Origin: an uncultured Acidobacteriota bacterium
GTDB taxonomy: Bacteria; Acidobacteriota; Thermoanaerobaculia; Multivoradales; UBA5704
Length of the DNA stretch: 64,000 bases
Assembly (NCBI GenBank): GCA_963770895.1
Contig: CAVYRF010000001.1
Location: 2,112,001 to 2,176,000, forward strand
Direction of reading: 5' to 3'
Shown: positions 14,101 to 36,198 of the stretch, one piece after another
Numbering within the stretch: position 1 is the stretch's first letter
Layout of the letters: each line of letters opens with the position of its first letter
Program-made: the position numbers and the translations under genes
Notes under the pieces: model-generated
What the model was told of the DNA's origin: nothing
The model's database searches: none
Seen by the model: only the letters and a program-made list of their open reading frames with translations

Positions 14101-14233
14101 GACCGGCAACCTCACCATCCCCGTGGGGGCGGCGATCGCGCAGGTCCCGACGCTCGGCTCACTGGGTCTCCTGCTGCTGGGGATCCTGCTGGCCGCGGCC
14201 GCCCTGGTGGCGCTGCGGCCGCGGCGGGCCTAG
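8102..14233 (+). CDS. Secreted S53 (sedolisin/kumamolisin) protease with pro-domain, Ig-like and MBG-like repeats and IPTL-CTERM-type anchor
   Basis: Signal peptide; pro-domain FHKWLTPEQFGARFG; catalytic ESYLD, SSGDNG, GGTSVAAP; GYDLATGLGSP; C-terminus VPTLGSLGLLLLGILLAAAALVALRPRR. Confidence 0.92.
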   Translation: MRSSQLLPCKALSYLLLALVALPTALAAQGRVTAQPVPRVKAAVDDRDRVVIAGHVLPVVRHAADAGRLPQTTAMNHLIMVLQPSVEQDHALATLLDQQLDRTSAVFHKWLTPEQFGARFGVHDADVAKVTGWLAQQGFTVEKVAKSKRFIQFSGTVRQVETAFRTEMHSFEINGHQRVSNNADISVPAALRPVIAGVPTLNSFFKHADFIDAGTVEGARVQAAVVEGAAPPPPPALGKLYFADPYRGAFSSPDYTNGTTHFVGAGDFATIYNTTPLLTAGFDGTGISIGIIARTDINLSDVQIYRTMFGLKPNDPTFTVVGEDPGVVAGDDGESYLDAEVSGGAAPGAHINFITSRATLTTDGVDLSALYAVDNNLTDIISESYGQCENNFSATAESFYTNLWGQAAAQGITVFLSSGDNGPASCDNSNSTFESFGYAVTGLGSTPFNVAVGGTLFADTAANWNATATTAPPFASALGYIPEVPWNEAKNSGATGAAGLWSGSGGISAYFPRPSWQHGFGVPASDPAYAGTGAFSSPASPFVPGPHRYLPDVAMAAAAQHDGTLYCGEGICQLTTTGALGNAGIVGGTSVAAPSMAGVQALIDQVNGGRQGMANYVYYTLADNQHTAGLNCASNSVSLDPTCAFRDITTGNTLICANSACTTANKIGWTAGAGYDLATGLGSPNAAQLANLWSTVTFRSSTTTLGATPTTGLTHGQSVLMTGTVAPGSGTGVPTGQVTFIPSTGALGDPPDPNTGGMLNPPPLATLDGSGNYSISVTNLPAGTYSLVARYGGDATFAASTSAPVTVTVAPEAANVTIAPNAFNGTTCVETAQTTFTYGSYIWTDFTVAGASLQGVPTGTLAITDNGNPLTTATLNASGVAHVLSGAIPTTSCVSGYTFQDAAPLAVGTHALGASYSGDGSFNAATASPVTVTITLASVTGALTTSATTIASGSSVQLTLTTTAISGAGPGTLSPSGTATFTDTTTSTVLGTAALTATTTGAARAILTTTAITAAGANSVTASWSADTNYNAGTATSAVTVTVATVTATSVAVTSNTNPSVIGGRPTFTATMTPTTVTSGTVNFFDGGVLLGSGTVGAAHTATFRPAATVNLPAGVHSITAVYAGNATFASSVSPVFSQTFTQSATTIALTVKTNGTWHQTFAFSGVLGTTLAATPPSGTIQFLDGGTPLGSPQPMATVATASGGFGLFQASFYTPLTAGTHTITATLADSNYTAATSNSQTITVAKANPTFSAVTGGGTFTYNGSPHALAGTATGANSESLPVTVSYSGTGATTYGPTAAAPSGAGTYAGTLSTAGDANNNSGNASPAAITINKATPAFSAVTGGGTFTYNGSPHALAATATGGGGESLAVTFSYTGTGATTYGPTSTAPVAAGTYSGTASTAGDANNNSGNASPAAITINKATPAFSAVTGGGTFTYNGTARPITATATGGGGESLAVTFSYSGTGATTYGPTATAPSGAGTYAGTASTAGNTNNTSANATPAAITINKATPTLSATGGSFGFDGNPHGGSGTATGGAGETLPVTLSYSGTGSTTYGPTATAPSGAGTYAVTASTVGDANNTSGSSTPASLSIGKATSSISATGGTFTYDGNPHGGTGSATGGIGETETVTYSYSGTGATTYGPTATAPTNAGTYQVVAHTDGDTNSAAADSTAAAITINKANSMVTATGGSFAFDGNPHGGSGTATGGAGEALPVTLSYSGTGSTTYGPTSAAPSAAGSYAVTASTVGNANNNAGSSTPAALAIGKATSSISATGGTFTYDGSQHGGGGSATGGTGETETVTFSYTGTGATIYGPTATAPTNAGTYQVVAHTAGDANSAAADSTAAAITINQAAATVSVTGFCTAFDGTAHTALGTATGVLSASLTGLDLSATTHTAPGTYNGDAWAFSNTNYVSQNGAVDDAIVGSVIAAASHVDPGSPDNVATVPDSGTGATYAWTITGGAITGGSGTPSVTFTAGDSASVQLSVTVTTTTGCAKTGNLTIPVGAAIAQVPTLGSLGLLLLGILLAAAALVALRPRRA
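11840..13663 (+). repeat. Seven tandem 258-264 bp MBG-like domain repeats
   Basis: Units start at 11840, 12104, 12368, 12632, 12890, 13148, 13406 (KA..ATGG.FTYDG.PH...YGPTA.AP..AGTY); a divergent eighth starts at 13664. Confidence 0.9.
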
Positions 14234-17820: not shown

Positions 17821-18023
17821 GCGTTTCACGCCGATCTCAAGGGCTGGCTTGTGCTAGCCTTGCGGCCTAGAAACAAGGTCCGGGCGCTGCGTCTAAGTGG
17901 CTGAAACAAAGTAGGTTTACAGCGGTTAAGCGGCGATCTGCGGCGGCCGCTTGGTCGGCGCGGGTCGGGCGGCCGCACGGCTTGGCGGCATGGCGCTCCC
18001 ACGGCCACGCAAGGGGTGAACGA

Positions 18024-21000: not shown

Positions 21001-21422
21001 TCGCCGCCAAGGCGGAGACTTCGCTGGCCGATGCCGTCGCGGGTCTGCGCAAGAGCGCCGAGGAGATCGAGGCGATCCTCCTCCAGCCGACGATTGCGGA
21101 CGAGGACCAGAAATCGTTCCGCGGACCGCTCGGTATCTTCCTCAAGCTGGTCTGGCTCAACGCCGAGGTATCGACCGGCGCCGGCGACGTTTCGGGCAAC
21201 GCCGACTTTGCGCCCACGCAACCCGAAGGTGAGGTCTTCGAGCTGCTCGACCACCAGCTCGGCGAGGTGCACCAGCGGTTCCAGTCCCTGTATGACCAGG
21301 GCGTCCCCGCCTTCAATCGCGCGCTGGCCGCCAAGGGGATGACCGGGATCGCCCCAGTCCATGAAGTCCCGCCGGAGTTCGCCAAGGAGAAGGAAAAGAA
21401 GCCGGACGAGGACGACAATTGA
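18024..21422 (+). CDS. Secreted BNR/Asp-box (VPS10/sortilin-like) glycosyl hydrolase-family protein
   Basis: Signal peptide; many Asp-box motifs (SIDGGTEW, STDGGKSW, TRDGGKTW, SDNGGAKW, TTDGGDHW); C-terminal GMNRVVWDLRY and helical tail. Confidence 0.9.
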   Translation: MRRMAALLWLSASAAMAVGAAATASASAAFEQAQPSPRTGVGDVTKPEAPVPEQAGEEKDKGPFDGLKFRFIGPPGNRVSAVVGMPGDPNVYYAGAASGGVWKSIDGGTEWKPVFDKMPAQSIGAIAIAPSDHAIVWVGTGETFIRSNVSIGNGVYRSTDGGKSWLHMGLDKTGRIGRVIIDPRDPNVVYVAALGTCYGPQPERGVFRTRDGGKTWERVLFVDQNTGASDLAMDPADSRTLFAGTWQIDIKTWGRNSGGPGSGVWVTHDGGNRWKRLTKDDGLPAAPLGKIAVAVAPNDSQRVYALIETGDKGSLWRSDNGGAKWKLVNHSRLLNERPHYYTRMLVMPDNANEVYFPSNSIGVSYDGGETTDQVDWGGDNHDMWADPMNPSRMMIGSDGGVFISTTRGRKWTWERLPIAQIYHVATDTRIPYGVHGQMQDGGSMRGPSRNPGADTIPPALWTTTAGCETGWATPDPVDPNIVWGGCYAGVVERYDDRTRMSRSVSVWPERTMGANAGQVKHRMNWTFPIAISPHDHNTVYVGSQYVMQTTDGGDHWTAISPDLTLHDPSMMGDSGGLTIDNLSVEYAGVVYSLAESPLARGEIWAGTNDGLVQVTRDGGAHWANVTPGKDLLPPKGTVDSVEPSPHEAGTCYVAVDLHQVDNRDPFIFKTNDYGRTWKSISSSIPKSPFSYVHVVREDPFRRGMLYAGTENGLYVSFDDGAHWRPLQSKLPHAPVYWLTVEPRFHDLVVATYGRGFYILDDVTSLEAWSEALQDSPAHLFAPVPAYRFRAVSQPAYAPTGTAEGKNGPEGALLTYWLKKAVPKPKETASDDDAAKEKPPLVQIRIFDAAGVKIRSLRGTDEAGMNRVVWDLRYDSIPEVRLRATPQANPHVWAEKRFAGKDRRPVLYYGIEDATRGPLVPPGSYTVKLRIGDQEFTAPVEVRKDPSSAGTPADVEAASKLSLAIYHDAASASGMIGELEWTRLQLEQLDRRLVAAKAETSLADAVAGLRKSAEEIEAILLQPTIADEDQKSFRGPLGIFLKLVWLNAEVSTGAGDVSGNADFAPTQPEGEVFELLDHQLGEVHQRFQSLYDQGVPAFNRALAAKGMTGIAPVHEVPPEFAKEKEKKPDEDDN

Positions 21423-21632
21423 GCGCCCGATGCGGCGAGCCGGCTGATCTGGCGGGCGCAGCTGGCGCTGGACAGGGTGCTCTCTCGCGGCCAGGATTTG
21501 GGGTTCGGCGCAGCGGGGGTGCGGCAGCGGGTCGAGGAGAAGTGGCCACGGTACGGCGTCGTTGCAGCGAACGGAGGTATCATCACCGGCATCGGATTTT
21601 CCGTCTTGAATCCCGCCCCTGAGAGCATGATC

Positions 21633-23633
21633 ATGCCTGACCACAACTACTTCTCGAACCTGATCTGGCAGATCGCCGACCTGCTGCGCGGGCCGTACCG
21701 GCCGCCGCAATACGAGCGCGTCATGCTGCCCATGACCGTGCTGCGTCGATTCGACTGCGTGCTTGCCCCTACCAAGGCCAAGGTGCTGGCCGAGCAGGCG
21801 CGGTCAAAGGTCAAGTTCAAGGGCGAGGCGCTCGACGCCCGACTCAACAGGGCGGCGGGCCAGCGCTTCCACAACCACTCGCCGCTCGACTTCGAGAAGC
21901 TCAAGGGCGACCCCGACCACATCGCTCAGCACCTCGTCAGCTACATCAAGGGGTTCTCGGCCAACGTCCGCCACATCTTCGACTTCTTCGAGCTCGAGAC
22001 CGAGATCGAGAAGATGCGCGAGTCGAACATCCTCTTTCTTGTCGTCTCGAAGTTCTGCGATGTGGACTTGACGCCGAGTGACGACCCTCGCACCGGGGTG
22101 CCGAATTTCCAGATGGGGCTCATCTTCGAGAACCTCATCCGCCGCTTCAACGAGCTGGCCAACGAGACCGCGGGCGACCACTTCACGCCGCGCGAGGTCA
22201 TCCGGCTGATGGTGAGCCTCCTGTTCATCCGGGATAACAAGCTGCTCGCCACGCCCGGCACCGTGCGCAAGCTCCTAGACCCCGCTTGCGGCACGGGTGG
22301 CATGCTGGCGGAAGCGCAGAACTACCTGCGCGACCACCATCGAGAAGCGAAGCTCTACGTCTACGGGCAGGACTACAACAAGCGCGCCTTCGCCACTGCG
22401 GCGTCAGACATGCTGATGAAGCAGGTCGATCATAACGGCAGCGGCGGCAACATCCGCTTCGGCGACAGCTTCACCGAAGACCAGTTCGCCGGCGAAACCT
22501 TCGATTACTTCCTAACTAATCCGCCCTTCGGTGTGGACTGGAAAAAGCAGCAGAAGGAGATCCAGCGCGAGCAGGAGAGGCAAGGTTTCGCGGGCCGTTT
22601 CGGCGCGGGGCTACCGCGCGTGAACGACGGCTCGCTGCTCTTCTTGCAGCACATGCTCGCCAAGTTCGAGCCGGTGGGGCCGGCCGAGCACAAGCACGGC
22701 TCGCGCCTCGCCATCGTCTTCTCCGGCTCGCCGCTCTTCACCGGCGGCGCCGGTTCCGGCGAGAGCGAGATCCGCAGGTGGATCATCGAGAACGACTGGC
22801 TCGAGGCCATCGTCGCCCTGCCTGAGCAGATGTTCTACAACACCGGCATCGGTACTTACGTCTGGATCGTCACCAACCGCAAGGAGAAGCGGCGCAAAGG
22901 CAAGATTCAGCTCCTTGACGCACGCGACTACTGGGCCGCCGGTGGTAGCGAGGAGAGCAAGCGCAGCCTCGGAGACAAACGCCGCCACATTACAATAGGG
23001 CAGATCGACGAGATTGTCAGCCTGTACGGCCGCTTCGAAGATGGTGAGCGCTCAAAGGTCTTCGACAACGCCGACTTTGGCTACACTCGCGTCACCGTCG
23101 AGCGCCCGCTGCGGCTCACCTACCAGATGACGAACGAGGACAAGGCGCGTTTCCTGGATTCCTGCCCCGAACTGTTCGACGACGTGCAGGCCATTGATGA
23201 GGCGCTGGGGCGGGAACCTTTGCGCGACTGGAATGCGATCGGAGAGCGTATTCAGGATCTTCTACGCGAGCGCCGATCAAAATGGAAGAAGCCGGAACAG
23301 AAGCGCTTCCGCGAGGTCTTCATCCGCAAGGAGCCCGAGGCCGAGCCGGTCTTGAGCGACGGGGCGAGCGGGGGCTATGAATGCGATCCCGACCTGCGGG
23401 ACTTCGAGAACGTGCCGCTCAAGGACAACATCGAAGCTTACTTCGAGCGCGAGGTGCTCCCCCACGTGCCCGATGCCTGGATGGACCGGAGCAAGGACAA
23501 GGTCGGCTACGAGATCAACTTCAACCGCCATTTCTACAAGTACACCCCACCCCGGCCGCTGGAGGAGATCGACGCGGATCTTAAGAAGGCGGAGGAAGAG
23601 ATCCTGCGGCTGCTGCGGGAGGTGACGGAGTGA
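21633..23633 (+). CDS. hsdM: Type I restriction-modification methyltransferase subunit M
   Basis: IWQIADLLRG, GDHFTPREVI, DPACGTGGML, TNPPFG, VGYEINFNRHFY. Confidence 0.95.
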   Translation: MPDHNYFSNLIWQIADLLRGPYRPPQYERVMLPMTVLRRFDCVLAPTKAKVLAEQARSKVKFKGEALDARLNRAAGQRFHNHSPLDFEKLKGDPDHIAQHLVSYIKGFSANVRHIFDFFELETEIEKMRESNILFLVVSKFCDVDLTPSDDPRTGVPNFQMGLIFENLIRRFNELANETAGDHFTPREVIRLMVSLLFIRDNKLLATPGTVRKLLDPACGTGGMLAEAQNYLRDHHREAKLYVYGQDYNKRAFATAASDMLMKQVDHNGSGGNIRFGDSFTEDQFAGETFDYFLTNPPFGVDWKKQQKEIQREQERQGFAGRFGAGLPRVNDGSLLFLQHMLAKFEPVGPAEHKHGSRLAIVFSGSPLFTGGAGSGESEIRRWIIENDWLEAIVALPEQMFYNTGIGTYVWIVTNRKEKRRKGKIQLLDARDYWAAGGSEESKRSLGDKRRHITIGQIDEIVSLYGRFEDGERSKVFDNADFGYTRVTVERPLRLTYQMTNEDKARFLDSCPELFDDVQAIDEALGREPLRDWNAIGERIQDLLRERRSKWKKPEQKRFREVFIRKEPEAEPVLSDGASGGYECDPDLRDFENVPLKDNIEAYFEREVLPHVPDAWMDRSKDKVGYEINFNRHFYKYTPPRPLEEIDADLKKAEEEILRLLREVTE

Positions 23634-24904
23634 GAGCCGTCTCCTGGGGCGCTTCCTTTCCGGTTGAATGGCCTCGAACAAGAATCAAGCACGTCTGTAC
23701 CTTCGTAGGAGGAGGCACCCCTGATAAGGGAAGTCCGGAGTATTGGAACGGTGACATTCCCTGGTTGTCGCCGAAGGATATGAAGAGCGGCGTTATTGAG
23801 GACACTGAAGATCACATCACTGCGGATGGCCTAGAGGCTAGCGCCACCAAGCTCGTCAATTCTGGAGCGGTCCTGATCGTGATGCGTTCGGGAATCCTGC
23901 GTCACTCAATTCCGGTCGCTGTCAATCACGTCTCGTTGACTCTGAATCAAGATATGCGCGCGCTGATCCCGAATCATCAGGTTGAGGCACGATACCTCGC
24001 CCGGCTTGTCGAGGGCCATCAGCGGCAGCTACTGAATGCCTGGAGTAAAGTCGGCAGTACCGTTGAGAGCCTCGAATCTGACCTTGTAGGCGAGACCGAA
24101 TTCGCTGCACCGCCGTTACCGCGCCAACGCGCCATCGCCGACTACCTCGACTGCGAAACAGTGAAGATCGATGCGTTGATCGCGGCGAAGGAGCGGGTGC
24201 TCGCGCTGCTGGCCGAGAAGCGTCGGGCGCTCATCACGCGCGCAGTCACGCGGGGCCTCGATCCTCACGCCCCGCTCCGGGACTCGGGTATCCCGTGGCT
24301 CGGCGAGATTCCGGTGCATTGGGAAATAGAGCGAGGAAGATGGCTCTTCCGGGAGCGCGATGTTCGCTCCGAGAAGGGCGAAGAAGGGTTGCTCACGGTC
24401 TCTCACCTCACCGGTGTTACTCCTCGCTCGGAGAAGGACGTGAATATGTTCGAGGCGGAAACCAATGAGGGTTACAAGATCTGTCAACCCGGCGATCTGG
24501 TTATCAACACGCTTTGGGCTTGGATGGGAGCAATGGGGGTCGCTCCGGTCAAGGGAATAGTTAGCCCCGCATACAACGTCTATCAGCCTGAGGCGCGGCT
24601 TGCCCCAGCTTACGTCGATGCTCTTGTCCGACTTCTCGTCTTTGCCCAAGAGGTCACTCGGTATTCTAAAGGTGTATGGTCGTCGAGGCTGCGGCTCTAT
24701 CCGGAAGGCTTCTTCGAGGTTTACTTCCCTGTACCCCCCTATGAAGAACAACGTGCCATCGTCGGGCACATTGGTAAAGAATCCGCCAGCCTCGCAGCTA
24801 TGCAGAGTACTACCGAGCGTACCATCTCACTTCTCAGAGAACGCCGCGCAGCCCTCATCGCTGCGGTTGTGACAGGTAGAATATCTGTAGAGGCAGCTAC
24901 ATGA
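23630..24904 (+). CDS. hsdS: Type I restriction-modification specificity subunit S
   Basis: Two TRDs with conserved spacers (PPLPRQRAIADYLD, DSGIPWLGEIPVHW, PPYEEQRAIV, AVVTGRI); GTGA overlap with hsdM; visibly lower GC. Confidence 0.93.
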   Translation: MRAVSWGASFPVEWPRTRIKHVCTFVGGGTPDKGSPEYWNGDIPWLSPKDMKSGVIEDTEDHITADGLEASATKLVNSGAVLIVMRSGILRHSIPVAVNHVSLTLNQDMRALIPNHQVEARYLARLVEGHQRQLLNAWSKVGSTVESLESDLVGETEFAAPPLPRQRAIADYLDCETVKIDALIAAKERVLALLAEKRRALITRAVTRGLDPHAPLRDSGIPWLGEIPVHWEIERGRWLFRERDVRSEKGEEGLLTVSHLTGVTPRSEKDVNMFEAETNEGYKICQPGDLVINTLWAWMGAMGVAPVKGIVSPAYNVYQPEARLAPAYVDALVRLLVFAQEVTRYSKGVWSSRLRLYPEGFFEVYFPVPPYEEQRAIVGHIGKESASLAAMQSTTERTISLLRERRAALIAAVVTGRISVEAAT

Positions 24905-26052
24905 CTCGCGTATCCGTCCATCCCGAGATGCTCCGTTGGGCCTGCGAGCGCGCGGGTTACGATGTGCACGACTTGGCGCCGCGCTTCCCCCACCTTCCAG
25001 AGTGGGAGCGCGGCGAGAAGCTGCCGACGTTCAAGCAGCTTGAGGCCTTCGCCAGGGCCACTCACACGCCATTCGGGTTTCTCTTCCTTCCCGAGCCGCC
25101 CCAGGAGCCCTTGCCGATCCCTGACTTTCGGACCCTGAAGGGTCGGCCGGCACGCCCGAGCCCCGATCTCCTCGACACGATCTATGCGATGCAGCGTCGG
25201 CAGGATTGGTTGCGCGAGGAGCGCATCGAAGGCGAGGCGGATCCGCTGGAACTCGTCGGCAATGCTCGATTGAAAGACGATCCAGCGGCTGTGGGCCAGG
25301 AGATGCGGCGAATTGTCGGCCTGGATGACGGGTGGGCAGCCGAGGTGCCGAATTGGCACGCGGCAGTCAGCGAGCTGCGCCGCCGCATCGAGGGCCTGGG
25401 AATCATGGCCGTCATCAACGGTATCGTCGGAAACAACACGCATCGCAAGCTCAACATAGAGGAGTTCCGCGGCTTCGCGCTGACCGATCGCTACGCTCCT
25501 TTACTCTTCGTCAACGGCGCCGACGCGAAATCGGCCCAGATGTTCACTATCGCGCACGAGCTCGCCCACGTCTGGCTGGGAGCGGAAGGACAAGGAATCT
25601 CCGGCTTCGAGGGCCTCTTTCCCGGAGACCATCGGATCGAAAAGTTCTGCGATCAGGCGGCAGCCGAATTCCTCGTGCCGGCTCGAGAGCTGCGCGAGTT
25701 CCGGAGAGACGTGCAGAACGCGCCGGATGCCTTTGAACGGGTCGCCCGCCACTTCAAAGTGAGTCCGATCGTGGCGGGACGCCGCGCAATGGACCTGCGC
25801 CTCGTGAATCGCGCCACATTCTTCGCCTTCTACGAGGCCTATACGAATCGCGAACGGCGGCAGGCGCAGGATTCTAGCGGCGGCGACTTCTATAACAACC
25901 AAAACGCCAGGGTCGGAGCTGCGTTCGCGACTCGCATCATTCGTGCAGCCATGGGAGGGCGGCTCACATTCAAGGAGGCTTACGATCTCACCGGGCTTCA
26001 CGGCGGGGCCTTTCAGGAGTATGCCAGGCGGCTCGGGATGGCACTGCCATGA
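24901..26052 (+). CDS. XRE-HTH / ImmA-IrrE (DUF955) zinc metallopeptidase fusion
   Basis: N-terminal HTH (WERGEKLPTFKQLEAFA), PIPDFRT, FTIAHELAHVWL (HExxH), EKFCDQAAAEFLVP; ATGA overlap with hsdS. Confidence 0.92.
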   Translation: MTRVSVHPEMLRWACERAGYDVHDLAPRFPHLPEWERGEKLPTFKQLEAFARATHTPFGFLFLPEPPQEPLPIPDFRTLKGRPARPSPDLLDTIYAMQRRQDWLREERIEGEADPLELVGNARLKDDPAAVGQEMRRIVGLDDGWAAEVPNWHAAVSELRRRIEGLGIMAVINGIVGNNTHRKLNIEEFRGFALTDRYAPLLFVNGADAKSAQMFTIAHELAHVWLGAEGQGISGFEGLFPGDHRIEKFCDQAAAEFLVPARELREFRRDVQNAPDAFERVARHFKVSPIVAGRRAMDLRLVNRATFFAFYEAYTNRERRQAQDSSGGDFYNNQNARVGAAFATRIIRAAMGGRLTFKEAYDLTGLHGGAFQEYARRLGMALP

Positions 26053-26570
26053 GTGCGCCGCCACCGTACCTCCTGGATTCGGACGTTTTCATCGCCGCCA
26101 AGAACGCCTACTATGCCTTCGACATCTGCCCGGGGTTTTGGGCAGGCCTCATTCGTGCCCACGCAGAAGGCCGCGCGCGGAGCCTGGACCGCATCCGCAA
26201 CGAGTTGCTCTCTGGGAGGGAAGAAGAGGACTTGGTGCAGTGGGTGAAAAACGACTTGCCTGCGGCCTTCTTCCATAGCTCCAATTCGGCGGAAATCAGC
26301 GCCGGCTACGCCGAGGTGATGCTGTGGGTCCAGCGGAACGCGCAGTATTTCGATCGAGCGAAGGCCAAATTCGCGACTGAGGCGGACGGTTGGCTCGTCG
26401 CCTACTCGATGGTGAACGCAACGGTGATTGTGACCAACGAACAGCCGCGACCGGAATCGAGGAATCGTGTCCTCCTCCCGGATGTCTGCGCGCAATTCGA
26501 GGTGACCTACAAGGACACCTTCGTCATGTTGCGGGAATTTGGGGTTCGGCTCGACTTGAAAGGCCCTTGA
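26049..26570 (+). CDS. DUF4411 family PIN-like protein
   Basis: YLLDSDVFIAAKNAYYAFDICPGFW, ADGWLVAY, IVTNE, LPDVC; ATGA overlap. Confidence 0.9.
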   Translation: MSAPPPYLLDSDVFIAAKNAYYAFDICPGFWAGLIRAHAEGRARSLDRIRNELLSGREEEDLVQWVKNDLPAAFFHSSNSAEISAGYAEVMLWVQRNAQYFDRAKAKFATEADGWLVAYSMVNATVIVTNEQPRPESRNRVLLPDVCAQFEVTYKDTFVMLREFGVRLDLKGP

Positions 26571-26573
26571 TTC

Positions 26574-29500
26574 GTGACGAACAGACATTACGAAGCGGCC
26601 TTCGAAACAGTGATCGAGGCGCATCTCCTCGCGCACGGCTACGTCCCCGTCAAAGCCGAAGGCTTCGACCGCGCACGCGCGATCTTCTCCGAGACCGTGC
26701 TCGCCTTCATCCGAGAGACACAGCCCAGCGAATGGGCCAAGCTTGAGGTTCTCCACGGCGAGGCGACAGGCGAGCAGGTTCTCGCCGACCTCTGCAAGTG
26801 GATGGACATGAACGGCTCGCTCGCCACGTTGCGCCACGGCTTCAAGTGCTACGGCCGGACGCTCCGCGTGGCCTACTTCAAGGCGGCCCATGAGCTGAAC
26901 CCTGAGCTCGAGGCCCGCTACGCGGCCAACCGGCTAGGGTTCACACGTCAGCTCCGTTTCTCGCCTCGTTCGGAGAAGTCGCTCGATGTGACCCTGAGCC
27001 TCAATGGCATTCCGGTGGCGACCATCGAGCTTAAGAACCCGCTCACCGGGCAGGCCGTGGATCATGCGCTGTACCAGTACCGGCATGACCGCGACCCGCA
27101 GGAGCCCATCTTCGAGTTTAAGAGGCGCACCCTGGTCCACTTCGCTGCCGATACCGAGAGCGTACGCATGACCACGCGGCTCGCCGGAAGCGCGACGCAC
27201 TTCCTGCCTTTCGACCAGGGCTGGGAAGGTGGCGCCGGGAACCCACCCGATCTGACCGGGCGCACCTACCGCACCGCCTACCTGTGGGAAGAAGTGCTGG
27301 CGCGCGACAGCCTGCTCGACATCCTCGGGCGCTTCCTGCATCTACAGAGCGACGAGAGACGTGACGAGCGGGGCCACAAGGTAAAGGTCGAGTCGATGGT
27401 GTTCCCGCGCTATCACCAGCTCGACGCGGTGCGGCGGCTGGTGGAGGCTGCGCGCGTCGAAGGCATAGGGCACAACTATCTTATAGAGCACTCCGCCGGC
27501 AGCGGCAAGAGCAACACTATCGGCTGGCTCGCGCACCGCCTGGCCTCCCTCCACGACGCAGGCAATGCGCGGGTGTTCGACAGCGTGATCGTGGTCACCG
27601 ACCGCGTCGTGCTCGATCAGCAGCTCCAGGACACGATCTACCAGTTCGAGCATAAGCGCGGCGTGGTGCAGCAGATCGACGAGCGCTCGCGGCAGCTCGC
27701 GGAGGCGCTTGAGAATGCGGTTCCGATCATCATCACGACGCTCCAGAAATTCCCTTTCGTCTCGCGTCAGTTGTTGAAGCTGGCCGACGAGCGCGGCGTG
27801 CAAGGCACGGGAATGCTGCCAACACGGCGTTGCGCCGTGATCATCGACGAGGCGCATAGCTCACAGGGCGGCGAGACGGTGACCGACCTGAAGGAAGTTC
27901 TGGGCGGCGAGAACCTGCTCGAGCAAGCGCGGCAACGTGCGGTCGAAGAAGGGCGCGCGGACTTCGAGGAGCTCTTCCGCAGCATGGCCAAGCGCGGCCG
28001 ACAGGCAAATTTGAGCTTCTTCGCCTTCACGGCCACGCCCAAGCACAAGACCTTCAAGGTTTTCGGGCGCGACGGCGAGCCGAGCCACCGGTATACCATG
28101 CGCCAGGCGATCGAAGAGGGCTTCATCCTCGACGTGCTGAAGAACTACACGACCTACGCCACCTACTACAAGCTGCTCAAGGCCTGCGAGGATGATCCCA
28201 ACGTCGAACGCAAGCAGGCGGCGCGGGCGTTGGCGCGCTTTCTGCGCCTGCATCCACACAACATCGCGCAGAAGACCGAGGTGATGGTCGAGCACTTCCA
28301 GGCGGTTACGCGGCACAAGATCGGCGGACGGGCCAAGGCGATGGTGGTCACCGGGTCGCGGCTGGAGGCGGTCCGCTACAAGCAGCGCTTCGACGACTAC
28401 ATCAAGAAGAAGGGCTATGCCATCAAGACTCTGGTGGCCTTCTCCGGGACGGTGCCGGACGACGAGCTCCCTGGCGTCGAGTACACGGAAGTGCAAATGA
28501 ACGGCGGCATCCGCGAGAAGGAGCTGCCCGAGAAGTTCGCCACGCAGGAGTACCAGGTCCTGCTGGTCGCGGAGAAGTACCAAACCGGCTTCGACCAGCC
28601 GCTGTTGCACACGATGTACGTGGACAAGCGTCTCGCCGGCATCCAGGCGGTGCAGACCCTGTCGCGGCTCAACCGCACGCATCCTTTCAAGGACGATACC
28701 TTCATCCTCGACTTCGTCAACGATCGAGAGGAGATCCGCGAGGCCTTCAAGATGTACTACGAAGGCGCCCAGATGGGCGAAGAGGTCGATCCGGCCCGAA
28801 TGTATGCAGTCAGGGGCGAGCTCGACGCCTCAGGCATTTTCCTCGACGAGGAAGTCGAGCGATTCAGCGCGGTGTACTTCAAGCCGAAGCAGCGCCAAAG
28901 CGCACAGGACCATCAATCCATGAACGCCGCACTCGATCCGGCCGTCTCACGGTTCACCGTGTTGCAGCGGGACGAAGAGGATGAGGCCGAGCTCTGGCGT
29001 GGCAAGGTCCAGGCGTTCCGCAACTTGTATGCCTTCCTTAGCCAGGTCATCCCGTATCAGGACTCCGATCTTGAACGGCTCTATGTCTTCCTGCGCTATC
29101 TCGCGGCAAAATTGCCCCGCCGCCGCGGAGGGCCCACCTACCAGTTCGATGACGAGGTGCAGCTCGAGTACTACCGCCTGCAGAAGATCAGCGAGGGCTC
29201 GATCTCGCTCCAGGAGGGCCAAGCCCGGTCCCTCGATGGTCCGAAAGAGGTCGGTTCGGGGCTTGTGCGAGCTGAGGAAGTTCCGCTGTCGCAGCTCGTC
29301 GACCTGCTCAACGAGCGCTTCGGCACCGATTTCAACCAGGCGGACCAGCTCTTCTTCGATCAGATCGTCGAGGCCGCGGTGACCGACGATGGACTGCGCC
29401 AAGCGGCTGCCGTGAACCCGATGGACAAGTTCGAGCTGGTGTTCAGAAATCTCCTCGAGCGCCTCTTCGTCGAGCGCATGGACCAGAATGAAGAAATCTT

Positions 29501-30122
29501 CGTCCGTTACATGAACGAAGCGCCCTTCCGGAACTTCGTCGGCCCGAGGATGGCGTCGCAGGTGTACCAGCGTCTGAGGTCGGATGAGAGTGGCTCGGCG
29601 ATCGACGCGACCGAGCGAGGCCTGCCATCGAACCTGCGGCGGGTCGAGGGCTCCGCGAAGGAGCGTTACGTCAGTTGCGTGCCATTCATTCCGCTCAAGG
29701 CAGCCGCGGGCGCCTTTAGCGATCCGCAGCACGTTGCGGATGACGGCTACGAGTGGGTCGCGGTCAGCTCACGCCACCGACTGCACCCAGGGATGTTCGT
29801 TGCACAGGTCGTGGGAAAGTCCATGGAGCCCATCATTCCTGACGGGTCCTGGTGCCTCTTTCGCGCACCGGTCGAAGGCTCTCGGCAGGGGAGGACCGTC
29901 CTCGTCCAACTGCACGACCTCACCGACCCAGAGACCGGCCAGCGGTACACGGTCAAGCAATACGAGAGCGAGAAGGCCGCAAAAGGCAATTCGTGGCGCC
30001 ACGAGAGGATCACGCTCAAGGCCATGAATCCCGACTTCAGTCCGATTGTGCTCAACCCTGAAGGTGAGGATGTGGTCGAAGTGGTAGCGGAGTTGGTCGA
30101 GGTTCTCGGTTCGGGCCTATAA
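26574..30122 (+). CDS. hsdR: Type I restriction endonuclease subunit R with C-terminal S24 (LexA-like) peptidase domain
   Basis: Nuclease [47 protein letters not shown]. Tail has [20 protein letters not shown]. Confidence 0.95.
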
Positions 30123-30225: not shown

Positions 30226-33200
30226 TCAGCGGGCCGCCGCGAGGTCGCGCTCGAGCTGGTCCAGGAGGAGTTCCTCGGCGGCCAGGGCGAGCGCCGCGGC
30301 GGTGGTCCGTTCGAGGAGAGTTGCGAGTGACAGGCGGACGCCGAGCTCCTGCTCCAGGCGATGGCGGACACGGGGGAGGAGGAGCGAGCGGCCGCCCAGG
30401 GCGAAGAAGTCGTCCTGGCGGCCGACGCGCGGGACTCCCAGGAGGTCGCGCCAGACGTATGCCACCGCCTCCTCGGCCGGCGTCGCCGGCGCCTCGTAGC
30501 CGCCGGCCGCGGTCGCCTCGAGCTTGGGGACCGGAAGAGCGCGGCGGTCGAGCTTGCCGCTGGCGTTGCGCGGCAAGGCGGGAAGCAGGGCGAAGAGCGA
30601 CGGCACCATGGGCTCGGGGAGGCGCTCTTTCAAGAAGCCGCGAAGCTCGGCCGCGGTGGCGCCTTCCCCCGGCCGCGCCGCCCACCAGGCGACCAGCGCG
30701 CGCTCGCCGGCGCGCCGCTCGTCGACCCCCACGGCCGCCTCGGCGACCGCCGGGTGCTGCGCCAGCGCCCCCTCGATCTCCGCCAGCTCGATGCGGACGC
30801 CGCGCACCTTGACCTGGCGGTCGATGCGGCCGAGGTACTCGAGCGCGCCGTCCTCCCCTCCATCCAGACGATGGCGCGCCAGGTCGCCGGTGGTGTACAT
30901 CCGCGCGCCGGAGCGGCCGGCGAAGGGGTCGGGAAGGAAGGCGCGGGCGGTGAGGTCCGGGCGCCCGAGGTAGCCGCGGGCCAAGCTCTCGCCGCCGACC
31001 GAGAGCTCGCCGGGGATCCCCGGCGGGCAGAGCTCGCGCGCGCCGTCCAGGACGTAGGCGCGGGCGCCCGGCAGCGGCCGGCCGATGGGGAGCTCGCGGA
31101 GCGGGCGTGGCGGGGCGTCCGGCTCGCCATGGAGGGAGTGCGAGGTGGCGGCGACGGTGACCTCCGTCGGCCCGTAGGAGTTGATCACCCGCACCGCGGG
31201 GCCGAGCTGACGGCGGAGGCGTGCGACGCGTTCCGGGAGCGGCCGCTCGCCGCCGGTGACCAGGAGGCGGATGGATGACGGCCAGGCGGCCTCGCCGGCG
31301 TCGACCCGGTCGACCAGCTCCTGCCAGAAGACGGTGGGGAGGTCGCAGACGGTCACCCCCCAGCTCGCGCAGGCGCCCAGGAAGGCCGCCGCCCCGGCGA
31401 GCATCGCGTCGTTGCGGAGGATCAGCGCCGCGCCGCTCGCCAGGCAGGAGAAGATCTCCCCGGCGCTGGCGTCGAAGGAGAGGGAGGCGAACTGCAGCAT
31501 GCGATCGGAGGGGGTGAGCGCGAGGTCCCGCCGCGCCGCGAGGACGTAGCTCGCGAGCCCGCCGTGGCGGATCATCACCCCCTTGGGCGCGCCGGTCGAG
31601 CCCGAGGTGTAGATGACGTAGGCGAGGCCCTCGCGGCCGGCCCCTGGCGTCGGGTCGCTCGGTGGTCCGCTCGGCGGCTCGACCGCGAGGGCCGGCCAGA
31701 TCTCGTCGAGGTCGACGACGGGCAGGCCGGCGAGCTGGGCCGCCGCGCGCGCCGCCGCGCGCCCGCCGCCGGTCAAGAGCGCCGCGGTGACGGCGCCGCG
31801 CCCGGCGTCCTGACCGGTGTCCCGCCCGATGTCCCTGAGGATGACGGCCAGGCGCTCGACCGGGCTGGCCGGGTCGAGCGGCACGTAGGCTCCCCCCGCG
31901 GCGAGCACGGCGAGAACGGCGGCGATCCGGCGCGGCGAGTGCTCGAGGGCGATCGCCACCCGGCTCTCGGGGCCGATCCCCTGGGCGACGAGCCGGCGCG
32001 CCAGGCTGTGCGCGAGGCGGGCGAGCTCGCCATAGGAGACCTCCCGACCCTCTGCGACGACGGCCGGCGCGCCGGGCCTGCGCGCCGCCTGGGCGAAAAA
32101 GGCGCGATGGACCAGCGGCGGCCGGGCCCCAGCTTGGCTGGCCTGACCGTCCTCGCCGGCCTCGCCGGCCTCGCCGCCGTCGCTCCAGGCGAGGAGCTGG
32201 CGGCGCTCGGACGTCGAGAGGAGGGGGAGCTCGGCGAGCGGCCGCTGCGGCGCGGCGAGCGCGGCGGCGAGCAAGGCCGCCAGGTGGTCGAGGAGGCGCG
32301 CCGCCGTCGCCTCGGTGAACAGGTGGGCGTCGTAGGCGAGCCGCAGCCCGATGCCGCCACCGCCATCACCCGCGCCGCGGGGATCGGACGTCTCTTCGGC
32401 GACGAGGCCGAGCTCGAAGACCTCCGCCGCCAGGTCCGCCGCGGGATCGGGGGGAGAGACGGCGATCTGGAGGCCCGCGCAGGAGAGCCGCGGCGCCGGC
32501 TGGCTGCGGAGCAGGAACAGGACCTGGAACGGCGGCGCGCGGCGCGGCTCGCGCGGCAGGTCCAGGGCCGTGAGGAGCATCTCGAGCGGCAGGTCCTGGT
32601 GCGCGCCGGCGCCCGCTGCCGCCTGCCGTACCTCGTCGACGAGCGGGCCGTAGCCGCGGTCGAGCCGCGGGCGGGCGCGGCGGACCAGGACGTTCCGGAA
32701 GGGTCCGATCAGCCCCAGGGCCTCCGGGCGGCGGCTCTCGACCGGCGTGCCGACCAGGACGTCCTCCTCGCCGCTGGTGCGCGCGAGGACGGCGGCCCAG
32801 GCGGCCAGGAGGAGCGAAGAGAGCGTCGCCCCGCGCCGGCCGCCCAGCTCGCGGAGGGCCGCGGCGAGCGGCGCCGGCAGCACGCGGTGGACCTCGCCGG
32901 CAAGGAATCCTTGCGCCGAGGCGCGGTCGAAGTCGGCCGGCAATCGCAGGACGGGAAGCGGCGGGGCGAGCTCGCGCCGCCAGGGATCGACCTCGAGGGC
33001 GAGCGCCTCGTCCGCGAAGTGCAGCCTCTGCCAGAGCGCATGGTCGGCGTACTGCAAGGGGGGCTCGGGGAGCGGCGACGGCCGGCCCGCGGCGAAGGCC
33101 TCGTAGAGCGCCGCGACCTCTCGCCAGAGGACGAGGCTCGATCCGCCGTCGAAGACGATGGGGTGAGCGGCGAGCAGCCCGGCGTGCCGGCCCGCCGCGA

Positions 33201-33600
33201 CGCGCACCAGAGCGACGCGGACGAGCGGCCCCGCCGCGAGGTCGAACGGGCGCCGCCGCTCCGCGGTGGCGAGGCGCGCGACCTCGCGCCTCGACGGCGG
33301 CTCCGGCAGGCCGGCGAGGTCGACGAGCGGCAGCGGCCGGCGCGCGGCGGGGGCCACGACGGGTTCCGGTGCGCCGCCTGGCGCGGCGAAGGTGGTGCGC
33401 AGGGTCTGGTGCCGGCGGACCACCTCGTCGAGCGCGCGGGCGAGGACGGCGCGGGCGAGCGGGCCCGCGATGTCGACGGTGTGGAAGAGGTTGCAGGTTG
33501 CCGCGCCCGGGTCGATCTGGTCGAGGAGCCACATGCGCTCCTGGGCGAAGGAGAGCGGGCGGACCGCTTCGTTCTGAAGCGCCGTCACACCAGGTCGCAC
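30226..33600 (-). CDS. Monomodular NRPS C*-A-T (degenerate C; A predicted for a basic residue)
   Basis: LSFAQERMW, AHPIVFDG in place of HHxxxDG, YTSGSTGAPKG, NSYGPTE, FFALGGRSL. Manual pocket code DAGDVGSVAK. Confidence 0.9.
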   Translation of the reverse strand: MRPGVTALQNEAVRPLSFAQERMWLLDQIDPGAATCNLFHTVDIAGPLARAVLARALDEVVRRHQTLRTTFAAPGGAPEPVVAPAARRPLPLVDLAGLPEPPSRREVARLATAERRRPFDLAAGPLVRVALVRVAAGRHAGLLAAHPIVFDGGSSLVLWREVAALYEAFAAGRPSPLPEPPLQYADHALWQRLHFADEALALEVDPWRRELAPPLPVLRLPADFDRASAQGFLAGEVHRVLPAPLAAALRELGGRRGATLSSLLLAAWAAVLARTSGEEDVLVGTPVESRRPEALGLIGPFRNVLVRRARPRLDRGYGPLVDEVRQAAAGAGAHQDLPLEMLLTALDLPREPRRAPPFQVLFLLRSQPAPRLSCAGLQIAVSPPDPAADLAAEVFELGLVAEETSDPRGAGDGGGGIGLRLAYDAHLFTEATAARLLDHLAALLAAALAAPQRPLAELPLLSTSERRQLLAWSDGGEAGEAGEDGQASQAGARPPLVHRAFFAQAARRPGAPAVVAEGREVSYGELARLAHSLARRLVAQGIGPESRVAIALEHSPRRIAAVLAVLAAGGAYVPLDPASPVERLAVILRDIGRDTGQDAGRGAVTAALLTGGGRAAARAAAQLAGLPVVDLDEIWPALAVEPPSGPPSDPTPGAGREGLAYVIYTSGSTGAPKGVMIRHGGLASYVLAARRDLALTPSDRMLQFASLSFDASAGEIFSCLASGAALILRNDAMLAGAAAFLGACASWGVTVCDLPTVFWQELVDRVDAGEAAWPSSIRLLVTGGERPLPERVARLRRQLGPAVRVINSYGPTEVTVAATSHSLHGEPDAPPRPLRELPIGRPLPGARAYVLDGARELCPPGIPGELSVGGESLARGYLGRPDLTARAFLPDPFAGRSGARMYTTGDLARHRLDGGEDGALEYLGRIDRQVKVRGVRIELAEIEGALAQHPAVAEAAVGVDERRAGERALVAWWAARPGEGATAAELRGFLKERLPEPMVPSLFALLPALPRNASGKLDRRALPVPKLEATAAGGYEAPATPAEEAVAYVWRDLLGVPRVGRQDDFFALGGRSLLLPRVRHRLEQELGVRLSLATLLERTTAAALALAAEELLLDQLERDLAAAR

Positions 33601-33622: not shown

Positions 33623-36049
33623 CTATTCCTGGCGCAGGGCGATCAGGGGATCGATCCGCGTCGCGCGGCGCGCCGGCAGGAAGTTGGCGGCGAGGGCGAC
33701 GGCGGCGAGGACCAGGGCCACGATGGCGAAGGTCCAGGGATCGTTCGTGCTCACGCCGTAGACCAGGCTGGCGAGCTGGCGGGTGGCGGCGAAGGCGACG
33801 GCGAGCCCGAGCCCGAGCCCGATCAGCACCAGGATCATCCCCTGGCGGAGAACCAGGCCGAGCACGTCGTCGCGATGGGCGCCGAGCGCCATGCGGATGC
33901 CGATCTCGTGGGTGCGCTGGTCGACCGTGTAGCTCACCACGCCGTAGACGCCGACCGCCGCGAGCACCAGGGCGAGCCCGGCGAAGAGGCCGAGGAGCAC
34001 GGTGTTGAAGCGGTTCGAGGCGAGCGAGGCGGCGACCACCTCGTCCATCGTCTGCGCCTGATCGACCGGCAGATCGTGGTCGAGGTCCTGCACGACCCGG
34101 CGGATGGGCGTCGCGAGCGTGCGCGGGTCGCCGGCGGTGTGCACGACGAGGGTGGAGTTGAGCTGCGGGCTCTGGAGCTGGGCGGTGTAGATCTCGTCGC
34201 CGGGGTCCCTGTCCAGGCTGAGGTGGCGCACGTCGCCGACGACGCCGACGACCGTCATCCAGCGCACGTCCTTATCGTGCGGATCGTCCAAGGTGAGGCG
34301 CTTGTTCAGCGCGTCGCCACCCGGCCACAGCTTGTCGGCGAGCGTGCGGTTGATGACCGCGACCGGGGTCGTGGCGTCGGTATCGTGATCGTCGAAGACC
34401 CTTCCTTTGAGCAGCCGCACGCCGAGGGTGCGGAAGAAGCCGGGGGAGACAAACCGCACGTTCGCCGCCGGCGCGTCCTGCGGCCGCGGGAACGGCCGGT
34501 CGCCGGCGGCGAAGTTGAGGATCATCCGATCGCTGCTGAGCGGCAGCGGGTACGCGGTCCCGGCCTGGTCGACGCCGGGCAGCTGCGCGACCCGCGCCAG
34601 CAGCGCGCGATAGAAGGCGATCTGCCGCTTGGGCTCATGATAGCGGAGCTCCGCCGGCGCCAGGGCGACGGTGAGGACCCCCTGCGACCGGAAGCCGGGG
34701 TCGAGGGAGTGCAGGCGGGAGAAGCTCTTGATGAGGAGCCCCGCCGCGACCAGGAGGACCAGGGCGACCGCCACCTCGGAGAGCACCAGGGCCTGTCGCG
34801 CCAGGCGCCCGCGGGCGCCGCCGGCGACGGCGCGCCCCCCCTCCTTGAGCGAGGCGTGGAGATGGCCGCCGGAGCTCTGCAGGGCGGGGATCAGGCCGAA
34901 GAGGAGGCCGGTGCCGACGGCTACGCCGAGGGTGAAGGCGAGCGCTTTCCAATCGACGGCGATCGAGTCGGCGCGCGGGATCTTGTTGCCCCCCAGGGCG
35001 ACGAGGGCGTGCACCCCCCAGACCGCGAGGAGGAGCCCGAGGAGGCCGCCGCCGAGCGACAGCAGGACGCTCTCGGTGAGCACCTGGCGCACCAGACGGC
35101 CGCGGCTGGCGCCGAGCGCGGTGCGCAGGGCGAGCTCGCGCTCGCGCGACGCCATGCGCACCAGCAGGAGGTTGGCGACGTTCAGGCAGGCGATGAGCAG
35201 CACCGCCGCCACCGCCGCCACCAGCACCAGCAGCGCCGGCCGGATCAGCTGCACCATATTCTCTCTGAGCCCGATCAATCTCACCGTCCACCCTTCGTTC
35301 GTCGCCGGGAATTGGCGGGCGAGGCGGCCGGCGATGCCCACCATCTCGGTGGTCGCGCCCTGGAGCGACACGCCCGGCCGGAGGCGGCCGGCGACCAGGA
35401 ACGTATGGGCGCCGCGGTCGGCCTTGGCGGGATCGACGGCGAGCGGCAGCCAGAGGTCGCGGTGGCTGGGCATGTCGAAGCGGGGCGGCGCCACGCCGAC
35501 GACCGTGTAGCTCTCGCCGTCGAGCGTCAGGCTGCTGCCGACGATCGCCGGATCGGCGCCGAAGCGGCGCCGCCAGAAGCCGTCGGCGAGCACCGCCACC
35601 CGGTGGTTGGCCGGCGTGTCCTCCGCGGCGGTGAAGACGCGGCCGGCGCCGCCGCGCATCCGGGCGACGCCGAAGACCTGCCAGAAATCGGCGGAGACCG
35701 TCGCCGCCCTGAGCTTCTGCGGCTCGCCGCGGCCGGTCAGGCTGACGCTCGCCGTGTCCAACGCCGCCAGCGCCGTGAACGAGCGGCTCTGCTGCCGCCA
35801 GTCGAGGAAGTTCTGGCTGGCGACGCTGAAGGTCGGGTAGCCCATCCCCGGGTTGCTCTCCCGGATGAGCACGATGCGGTCGGGATCGGGGTAGGGCAGG
35901 GGCTCGAGCAGCACGCCGTTGACGACGCTGAAAATGGCGCAATTGGCGCCGATGCCGAGCGCCAGCGCGAGGAGTGCGGCGCCGGCGGTGAGAGGCGAGC
36001 GGCGCAGGCTGCGCATCCCGAAGCGGACGTCACTCCAGAGGGTTCCCAT
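33623..36049 (-). CDS. Duplicated MacB/FtsX-type ABC permease (ADOP family)
   Basis: LALGIGANCAIFSVVNGVLL, IACLNVANLLL, RELALRTALGA, RTHEIGIRMALGA, PARRATRIDPLIALR. Confidence 0.93.
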   Translation of the reverse strand: MGTLWSDVRFGMRSLRRSPLTAGAALLALALGIGANCAIFSVVNGVLLEPLPYPDPDRIVLIRESNPGMGYPTFSVASQNFLDWRQQSRSFTALAALDTASVSLTGRGEPQKLRAATVSADFWQVFGVARMRGGAGRVFTAAEDTPANHRVAVLADGFWRRRFGADPAIVGSSLTLDGESYTVVGVAPPRFDMPSHRDLWLPLAVDPAKADRGAHTFLVAGRLRPGVSLQGATTEMVGIAGRLARQFPATNEGWTVRLIGLRENMVQLIRPALLVLVAAVAAVLLIACLNVANLLLVRMASRERELALRTALGASRGRLVRQVLTESVLLSLGGGLLGLLLAVWGVHALVALGGNKIPRADSIAVDWKALAFTLGVAVGTGLLFGLIPALQSSGGHLHASLKEGGRAVAGGARGRLARQALVLSEVAVALVLLVAAGLLIKSFSRLHSLDPGFRSQGVLTVALAPAELRYHEPKRQIAFYRALLARVAQLPGVDQAGTAYPLPLSSDRMILNFAAGDRPFPRPQDAPAANVRFVSPGFFRTLGVRLLKGRVFDDHDTDATTPVAVINRTLADKLWPGGDALNKRLTLDDPHDKDVRWMTVVGVVGDVRHLSLDRDPGDEIYTAQLQSPQLNSTLVVHTAGDPRTLATPIRRVVQDLDHDLPVDQAQTMDEVVAASLASNRFNTVLLGLFAGLALVLAAVGVYGVVSYTVDQRTHEIGIRMALGAHRDDVLGLVLRQGMILVLIGLGLGLAVAFAATRQLASLVYGVSTNDPWTFAIVALVLAAVALAANFLPARRATRIDPLIALRQE

Positions 36050-36198
36050 GGGCGGATAGCTTGGCATGGGGTCGGCGGTGGGTCAACGTGAAGACCATGC
36101 GGGCCGCCGGCCGACAGTTCAGTATTTGCAAACGTTTCTGCCATTTGCCGCCGCTGTCCTATTCTGCGATCTTTGAGCACACCTTGGTAGACGTGGCC

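Follow-up and report, generated by a model that had tools for sequence, protein, structure and literature searches.

The type I restriction subunit HsdR encoded on a 64,000-nucleotide (nt) stretch of an uncultured Acidobacteriota genome (contig CAVYRF010000001.1, positions 2,112,001 to 2,176,000; hereafter the window) carries at its C-terminus a domain related to the self-cleaving part of LexA. The hsdR open reading frame (ORF; 26574..30122, + strand) translates into 1182 amino acids (aa) in one unbroken frame, and from sequence comparison and structure modelling its last 162 residues are predicted to form an active autoprotease of the LexA type, attached through a short and variable linker. 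Tails of this kind probably tie the activity of the immune nucleases that bear them to the DNA-damage signal. We tentatively propose, with a confidence that stays somewhat below even, that they represent a mobile LexA-type module serving as a portable RecA-filament sensor on unrelated immune enzymes and coupling their protein level to the SOS signal.

Residues 1-1010 (26574..29603, + strand) constitute the HsdR body, composed of a nuclease, a superfamily 2 (SF2) motor and a helical C-terminal domain, as delimited by Pfam, by the PADLOC model REase_I and by the ends of orthologues devoid of S24. HSDR_N, SWI2_SNF2, ResIII and T1R_D3-like all exceed their Pfam cut-offs, the GSGKS, DEAH and D...ELK motifs are recognized by eye in the translation, and NCBIfam TIGR00348 scores 197.6 bits, under its cut-off of 284.55. 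The protein thus has the nuclease region, the SF2 motor and the domain 3 of a type I R subunit, with hsdM and hsdS encoded upstream. The linker (residues 1011-1020; 29604..29633, + strand) varies among the fused orthologues, the alignment consensus displaying no majority residue, and the unfused orthologues end just before it. The predicted self-cleavage module of S24 (LexA) type follows (residues 1021-1182; 29634..30119, + strand), as assigned from Pfam PF00717, AlphaFold2 and Foldseek. The match to Peptidase_S24 (PF00717) extends from residue 1039 to 1174 and covers profile positions 3-115 (113 of 116); it scores 31.4 bits with the whole HsdR and 37.0 bits (E = 3.1e-9) when the tail is taken by itself, relative to a curated cut-off of 23.3, and a scan of the whole genome also recovers the domain, at 36 bits. 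The first-pass annotation of this DNA had read the in-frame continuation of HsdR into PLKAAAG at 29691-29711, with a Ser in GKSMEP and a Lys in YTVKQY, and had named a Peptidase_S24 profile search as a check. Each of these elements is found on the 1182-aa ORF, where P-L-K-A-A-A-G spans residues 1040-1046, and the profile search gave the match described above.

The N-terminal winged-helix or helix-turn-helix (HTH) domain of LexA/CI repressors was not found in HsdR, residues 1-1010 being HsdR domains; it thus does not qualify as a LexA repressor, although the automatic names of one database source call some such fusions 'SOS-response transcriptional repressor LexA'. A frameshift or fusion artefact was ruled out, as the same 1182-aa protein and 69 full-length HsdR-type relatives are present in independent assemblies. 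On the evidence of sequence and model, the tail of HsdR is a genuine, intact-looking S24/LexA-type module.

The relation of the tail to LexA was detected at the level of the family. Used as a single-sequence phmmer query, the tail gave no match to PDB sequences at E ≤ 1; matching them needed A1, a 41-sequence profile of the tail family, with which LexA, lambda CI and UmuD came up at E-values of 0.001-0.2 (LexA only marginally, at 0.001-0.01). In the A1 alignment to E. coli LexA, A-A-G falls on V-A-A-G (A84-G85), G-x-S-M on S119 and T-V-K-R on K156. This places the predicted scissile bond between Ala1045 and Gly1046 (29706..29711), the predicted nucleophile at Ser1083 in G-K-S-M-E-P (29820..29822) and the predicted general base at Lys1128 in Y-T-V-K-Q-Y (29955..29957), all on the + strand, the last two residues being invariant in A1 and the first pair conserved in the family. 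Two insertions are seen relative to LexA, one being a loop with DPETG ahead of the Lys strand and the other ~10 residues that follow this strand. The genome's own LexA (L001, 217 aa) and a second LexA-like protein (L002) align equivalently, with AAG/TAG sites. The latter (L002:1498-1908, contig C2 of the same genome) has a Thr-Ala-Gly site, G-R-S-M and T-V-K-K, and its frame is open upstream (200 aa).

The AlphaFold2 model of the S24 module built from A1 reached a mean predicted local distance difference test (pLDDT) of 92.7 and a predicted template modelling score (pTM) of 0.87. Its comparison to the PDB with Foldseek returned 28 matches at E ≤ 1e-3, those listed being LexA, lambda CI or related chains, UmuD included, and at the top were the cleavable-form LexA mutant 1jhe and the LexA and lambda CI structures bound to the RecA filament (8trg, 8gms, 8gmu). 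TM-scores were moderate (0.4-0.74) because of the insertions. Note that the AlphaFold2 model of HsdR from residue 701 to 1182, built with 31 close homologues, was of low quality (mean pLDDT 47.1) and was discarded, and that a predicted complex of two copies of the module scored 0.00, from which nothing is concluded on dimerization.

We then considered the conservation of the residues required for self-cleavage in 270 domains from 269 proteins, aligned to the hidden Markov model of the family (counts are given relative to the rows without a gap). Ser1083 is Ser in 266/268, Lys1128 is Lys in 258/262, and on either side of the predicted scissile bond Ala1045 (P1) is Ala in 248/251 and Gly1046 (P1') is Gly in 244/251. 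The neighbouring Ala1044 (Ala in 246/250) and Met1084 (Met in 264/269) are nearly as constant, and P3 is Ala in 211 rows, Val in 24, Ile in 8 and Leu in 3. The conserved AAG site and Ser/Lys dyad that the first-pass annotation had expected of S24 fusions are therefore what this larger survey returned. Near-invariance of Ser, Lys and Ala-Gly is expected of an active autoprotease and is not needed by a mere binding domain; at the sequence level, it argues that catalysis is under selection. A domain present by chance or decayed was ruled out by these same residues.

For LexA, PMC9926225 describes, in the part that concerns this interface, a hydrophobic pocket made of F111, L113 and V153 that receives Phe203 of the RecA L2 loop, and an acidic patch (D150-E152) that faces RecA K232, R243 and K245. 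The equivalents in the HsdR tail were transferred through the A1-LexA alignment and designate positions only, with no geometry. Phe1075, equivalent to F111, is Phe in 263/266, and Tyr1125, equivalent to V153, is Tyr or Phe in 253/263. Acidic residues are found on the inserted loop before the Lys strand, namely Asp1118 (260/265) and Glu1120 (Glu or Asp in 253/265), and Asp1115 is Asp or Glu in 212/265. The conserved pocket and acidic positions are compatible with binding to the RecA-single-stranded DNA filament (RecA*) and do not prove it, some of them being perhaps plain core residues. As for the host, the genome encodes a canonical RecA with an MFGNPETT L2 loop and ClpX (639.6 bits), and its ssrA tag ends in LAA.

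The tail is shared by a large set of proteins. A word-indexed search with HsdR residues 1000-1182 as the query, among proteins of 650-2069 aa, retrieved 1533 proteins at E ≤ 1e-3, the best 120 of which are either HsdR-S24 proteins of ~1180 aa or proteins of ~1300 aa that join N6_Mtase/Eco57I, Type_ISP_C and S24; the S24 tail is also found on one type ISP enzyme that is complete (1826 aa). In a BLAST labelling of the 119 other matches, the HsdR body was recognized over more than 700 residues in 69 and not at all in 47. An exhaustive search of the 162-residue tail against 1.84 billion cluster representatives, with no restriction on length, gave 1842 representatives at E ≤ 1e-3, of which 160 reach E ≤ 1e-30. 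We scanned with Pfam (E ≤ 1e-3, families counted once per protein) the 80 proteins of at least 240 aa found among the best 150 representatives. The most frequent partner is Type_ISP_C (11/80), followed by HsdR-type proteins, including a second HsdR family with T1RH-like_C (7/80), by MZB with or without a DEAD helicase (5/80, one of them also with an MTES_1575 nuclease), and by the Schlafen group-3 helicase and XRE-type HTH (4/80 each). PLDc_2, RE_endonuc, MmeI-like or N6 methylase, Schlafen AlbA_2 and HNH are each found in 2/80, and McrBC, LlaJI and ResIII only in 1/80 each; 36/80 show no other Pfam domain, and many of the scanned representatives are metagenomic gene fragments. Of the 111 complete S24 domains among the representatives, 103 are no more than 30 residues away from the C-terminus. 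Judged by their sequences, these domains are one S24 subfamily, a distinct and strongly conserved clade attached to defence enzymes, which sits C-terminally on unrelated DNA-targeting defence proteins and on a few HTH repressors.

The genomic context of the fusions was examined on 15 related loci from metagenome-assembled genomes (MAGs), retrieved with the single tail, a search that reaches close relatives only. They belong to Acidobacteriota, Anaeromyxobacter, Desulfosarcina, Pseudomonadales, Gammaproteobacteria, Nitrospirae, Planctomycetota, Syntrophus and others. Two of them (L010 and L011) are hsdM-hsdS-...-hsdR-S24 operons, L011 with the same M78 and DUF4411 insert as the window (see below). 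At L013:2386-11622, three genes encode a PLD-SNF2 helicase (1043 aa), a methylase-Type_ISP_C-S24 protein (1317 aa) and a HATPase_c_3 protein; this system is followed by a pair made of an Xre-type antitoxin and a RES toxin. Proteins of ~1975 aa composed of a DEAD helicase and MZB and ending in S24 are encoded at L014:2-9477 and L016:1212-7139, the former downstream of an Eco57I-type methylase (DISARM-like). S24 matches within open frames of ~2050-2100 aa are also seen in one genus of the same order as the window's genome. At L019 and L020, a small S-adenosylmethionine (SAM) methyltransferase is paired with a ResIII helicase-S24 protein. The EcoEI-type HsdR (EcoEI_R_C) at L022:8542-11580 has its S24 domain not at the C-terminus and instead inside the N-terminal PD-(D/E)xK nuclease domain, after the first conserved helix and ahead of the D...E-x-K core, a position at which cleavage would split the nuclease domain. 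The called start of this last ORF is probably too far upstream, given its Arg/Ala-rich N-terminus. The closest tail (77% identical) is at L009:8200-9486 in an Acidobacteriota MAG, in a frame broken upstream by stops, indicating a broken or mis-assembled gene. When the tail was searched by tblastn in 72,556 plasmids, a single weak match was obtained (42% identity, on a Halomonas megaplasmid), so that, by sequence similarity, the S24 module is not common on sequenced plasmids.

Within the phylum, the tail comes and goes at the end of an otherwise continuous HsdR. With HsdR residues 701-1182 as the query on 401 genomes, full-length matches were found in four other genomes (55-77% identity), matches to the HsdR part only in several (up to 77% identity), and matches including S24 in 27 (G000 included), often in open frames of differing size, from 230 to 2100 aa. 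Ten operons were compared by tblastn: the tail is present in 4/4 fused orthologues and in none of the 6/6 unfused ones, whose HsdR bodies are 55-81% identical over ~1000 residues and end at ~residue 1010. Read from these alignments, residues 1-1010 are a complete HsdR, 1011-1020 a linker and 1021-1182 a module. Among the 69 HsdR-type matches, the body is 78-90% identical (median 83.5%) and the tail 68-80% (median 72.5%), and tail identity exceeded body identity in 0/69; the idea that the tail is more conserved than the enzyme was thus rejected. The body being the more conserved part, the system as a whole appears as a well-conserved unit that spread recently, and this recent spread would partly account for the high identity of the tails. 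Note that the window's tail is as near to its counterparts on type ISP-like proteins (median 74.7% identity) as to those on its own orthologues (72.5%). A tree of 230 complete domains (FastTree, midpoint root) displays 6 changes between HsdR and ISP labels on 132 tips, with modest support, which suggests that some tails passed from one class of enzymes to another, on a tree too weakly resolved to rely on.

From these observations we tentatively infer that cleavage occurs, what triggers it, what becomes of the product and in which direction restriction changes, as follows. DNA damage, or cutting of the host chromosome, would give rise to RecA*, in the groove of which the S24 module would dock as LexA does. 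The strand bearing the cleavage site would then be held in the active site formed by Ser1083 and Lys1128, where the Ala1045-Gly1046 bond would be severed. The resulting HsdR(1-1045) would end in ...Leu-Lys-Ala-Ala-Ala, similar to the C-degron latent in the LexA N-fragment and to the final -LAA of the organism's ssrA tag, and it would be removed by ClpXP or another AAA+ protease. Restriction would consequently drop while HsdM and HsdS go on methylating. The outcome would be a hard-wired and host-independent restriction alleviation, an 'autoimmunity fuse', and many other defence nucleases would carry the same switch. The ...LKAAA-COOH end, predicted in the first-pass annotation, is supported by analogy with LexA, Ala1045/Gly1046 falling on A84-G85. 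In its essential part, i.e. that RecA* stimulates self-cleavage and that the Ala-Ala C-terminus thus exposed targets HsdR for degradation, this RecA*-triggered down-regulation is quite possible and falls a little short of probable.

Several features speak for a loss of the cargo. The partners are unrelated and the linker is short and variable, so the mechanism has to be partner-independent; exposure of a degron, or loss of S24-mediated pairing, has this property and would inactivate the cargo, as happens in all HTH-S24 repressors. In the type I system, S24 is fused to the R subunit only, which fits the ClpXP-dependent alleviation of EcoKI. The L022 protein, whose nuclease domain would be split by cleavage, also points to inactivation, and a type I system that is off until damage occurs would not stop incoming DNA. 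A series of other features weighs against RecA*-triggered down-regulation. HsdR(1-1045) keeps the whole body, since orthologues end at ~residue 1010, so cleavage alone should not inactivate the enzyme; inactivation would need a second, proteolytic step that depends on a putative degron, and activation stays a live alternative. The new C-terminus is K-A-A-A and not L-A-A, P4 is variable in the family (K in 173 rows, Q in 20, R in 20, E in 15 and A in 14), and Ala-Ala may be conserved only for cleavage itself. On the RecA side, the position of LexA L113 is held by Ala1077 (Ala in 251/267), and the two insertions relative to LexA adjoin the putative RecA-contact region. In L013, the tail is on the methylase-TRD (target recognition domain) protein and not on the PLD-helicase nuclease, so that its loss would also end methylation. 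Lastly, a RecA-independent LexA-like protein, IrvR, is on record in the cited part of PMC7101444, and the alleviation of EcoKI was argued, in the relevant section of PMC4231737, not to be a general SOS effect in trans.

If cleavage takes place, its effect could be the reverse. The S24 tail would keep the enzyme off or sequestered, and RecA*-stimulated cleavage would free a canonical and fully active HsdR for a second-line or abortive defence, restricted to cells in which ssDNA or damage signals are already present. The cleavage product corresponds to a natural S24-less HsdR with ~35 additional residues and should be a competent enzyme, several partners (PLD, HNH, Schlafen AlbA_2) are typical of suicide-type effectors, and UmuD, also of the S24 family, becomes active through cleavage. 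The operon also holds an M78 peptidase resembling CapP and RmrA, and characterized relatives of these peptidases switch defences on after DNA damage. However, a type I system with its own hsdM and hsdS must act before any damage signal, and with HsdR off it would provide no first-line defence. Moreover, a single module, attached by a short variable linker, would need to inhibit a large number of enzymes that are structurally unrelated, the HTH-S24 proteins of this subfamily (4/80) are of a kind that cleavage inactivates, and cleavage in L022 would go through the nuclease domain. We regard damage-licensed activation as unlikely, yet as a serious rival.

The trigger could also differ from RecA*, with self-cleavage being a constitutive maturation or responding to pH, to a phage protein, directly to ssDNA or to the motor working on DNA. 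The conserved catalytic and cleavage-site residues call for cleavage but do not call for RecA, the subfamily stands apart from LexA by its two insertions and by its marginal E-values to the LexA sequences of the PDB (0.001-0.01), and IrvR provides a RecA-independent precedent (PMC7101444, in the part cited above). On the other hand, conservation extends to equivalents of the LexA/UmuD/CI residues that hold the RecA L2 loop and to an acidic cluster close by, RecA-bound LexA and CI are among the closest structural matches, and the fusion partners all act on DNA, as would fit a DNA-damage cue; a cue other than RecA* seems to us rather improbable. Finally, the domain could act without cleaving, by dimerization or by binding to RecA filaments, thus pairing HsdR subunits or localizing the enzyme. 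In LexA, CI and UmuD, the C-terminal domains do dimerize and bind RecA filaments, as the corresponding part of PMC9926225 reports, and many nucleases act as dimers. Binding alone, however, would not need a near-invariant Ser, Lys and Ala-Gly across the 270 domains. S24 relatives that are non-catalytic usually lose their catalytic or cleavage-site residues. A non-cleaving role seems to us very unlikely here.

In comparison to known systems, the tail is akin to LexA, lambda CI and UmuD (MEROPS S24, PF00717) by its fold, its Ser-Lys dyad and an Ala-Gly on the strand that precedes the catalytic core. In the alignment, the positions of two of the three RecA-L2 pocket residues are conserved (the third being Ala), with acidic residues nearby on the inserted loop, and the Ala-Ala C-terminus of the LexA N-fragment resembles the predicted HsdR cleavage end. 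It differs from them in that it comes without a DNA-binding domain, has two insertions and carries as cargo a 1010-residue helicase-nuclease. In LexA and LexA-like proteins, C-degrons lie directly beside the cleavage sites and remain functional when moved to other proteins, according to the portion of PMC5742171 used here, which credits the LexA case to Neher et al (2003). The same portion describes for LexA, IrvR and HdiR the two-step logic that we propose, autocleavage followed by AAA+ degradation through a site-adjacent degron. These three are transcription factors, whereas the cargo here is an enzyme and the degron putative.

A functional parallel is the alleviation of EcoKI (type IA HsdR), which PMC4231737, in its sections on this process, ascribes to proteolysis of HsdR by ClpXP, in agreement with the first-pass annotation. 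There too HsdR alone is degraded, shielding the chromosome from unmodified sites after damage or during establishment (PMC4231737 and PMC12707154, in the passages concerned). The EcoKI degron is left unidentified in those sections of PMC4231737, where it is described as exposed on translocating complexes one by one, with no SOS signal in trans, and the authors ask why alleviation has not been seen in other classes of restriction enzymes. By contrast, the signal proposed here is RecA* and the proposed degron is made by self-cleavage. EcoKI is not known to have an S24 domain. CapP/CapH, ImmA/ImmR and IrrE/DdrO are also DNA-damage-responsive proteolytic controls of defence or mobile-element genes, and a member of this group lies in the window's operon; these are metallopeptidases that act in trans on a repressor and thereby on transcription, whereas the S24 tail lies in cis on the effector.

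In the full-text literature searched (few subscription journals, no supplements), we found no restriction enzyme or other defence nuclease described with an S24 or LexA-like domain. Within this same scope, no account of the mechanism came up, in line with the belief expressed in the first-pass annotation. 'LexA', 'S24' and 'autoprote' are absent from the text of a 2025 restriction-modification review (PMC12707154), as are 'LexA', 'S24', 'peptidase', 'protease' and 'SOS' from that of a 2025 survey of YprA helicases (PMC12458937), and 'LexA' and 'S24' from a census of McrBC/CoCoNuT systems (PMC11090510) and a reappraisal of Dnd (PMC10853773). The autoprotease domain and the enzymes are known; their combination implies a new regulatory logic. 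Restriction alleviation after damage has been known for decades, with a mechanism understood only for EcoKI-like enzymes. If the tail does sense the SOS signal, it would provide a partial answer on alleviation in other classes, for a large and mostly environmental set of systems, as a post-translational and cis-acting control of immune nucleases by RecA. It would also explain how such systems change hosts without killing them, as a guard against self-restriction both during repair and on arrival. The S24 module could further serve as a transferable, damage-responsive degradation switch.

The operon of the window reads, on the + strand, hsdM, hsdS, HTH-M78, DUF4411 and hsdR. The type I N6-adenine methylase HsdM (21477..23633, 718 aa) is assigned by Pfam N6_Mtase (1.3e-52) and HsdM_N (1.2e-23) and by PADLOC MTase_I (2.2e-258), and the specificity subunit HsdS (23630..24904, 424 aa) by Pfam Methylase_S (5.6e-16) and PADLOC Specificity_I (1.2e-109). 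Next comes an M78 (ImmA/IrrE-type) metallopeptidase with an HTH (24901..26052, 383 aa), matched by Pfam Peptidase_M78 (3.9e-15), by PADLOC CapP (2.6e-13) and by several RmrA models, the HTH being recognized by eye in the N-terminal sequence, unscored. Its partner is a DUF4411 protein (26049..26570, 173 aa; Pfam DUF4411, 4.1e-42), for which PADLOC gave no match. This pair between hsdS and hsdR (24901-26570) resembles a two-gene module of RosmerTA-like or CapP-like type, its M78 member being of the ImmA/IrrE/CapP/RmrA kind. An M78 homologue is present in 5/7 S24-fused operons (one only 30% identical) versus 1/6 unfused ones (25% identical), and DUF4411 in 3/7 versus 0/6, in few and related genomes. 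The pair may represent a second damage-responsive protease module, as a back-up to the S24 tail.

Among the eight flanking ORFs scanned, we noticed no integrase or other mobile-element gene. Upstream of the operon lie a 2072-aa pro-kumamolisin and Big_3_5 protein (8015-14233) and a BNR/sortilin-like protein (17982-21422). Downstream and convergent with hsdR, a one-module nonribosomal peptide synthetase (Condensation, AMP-binding, PP-binding; 30226-33600, - strand) is followed by a MacB/FtsX-type permease, also convergent (33623-36067, - strand).

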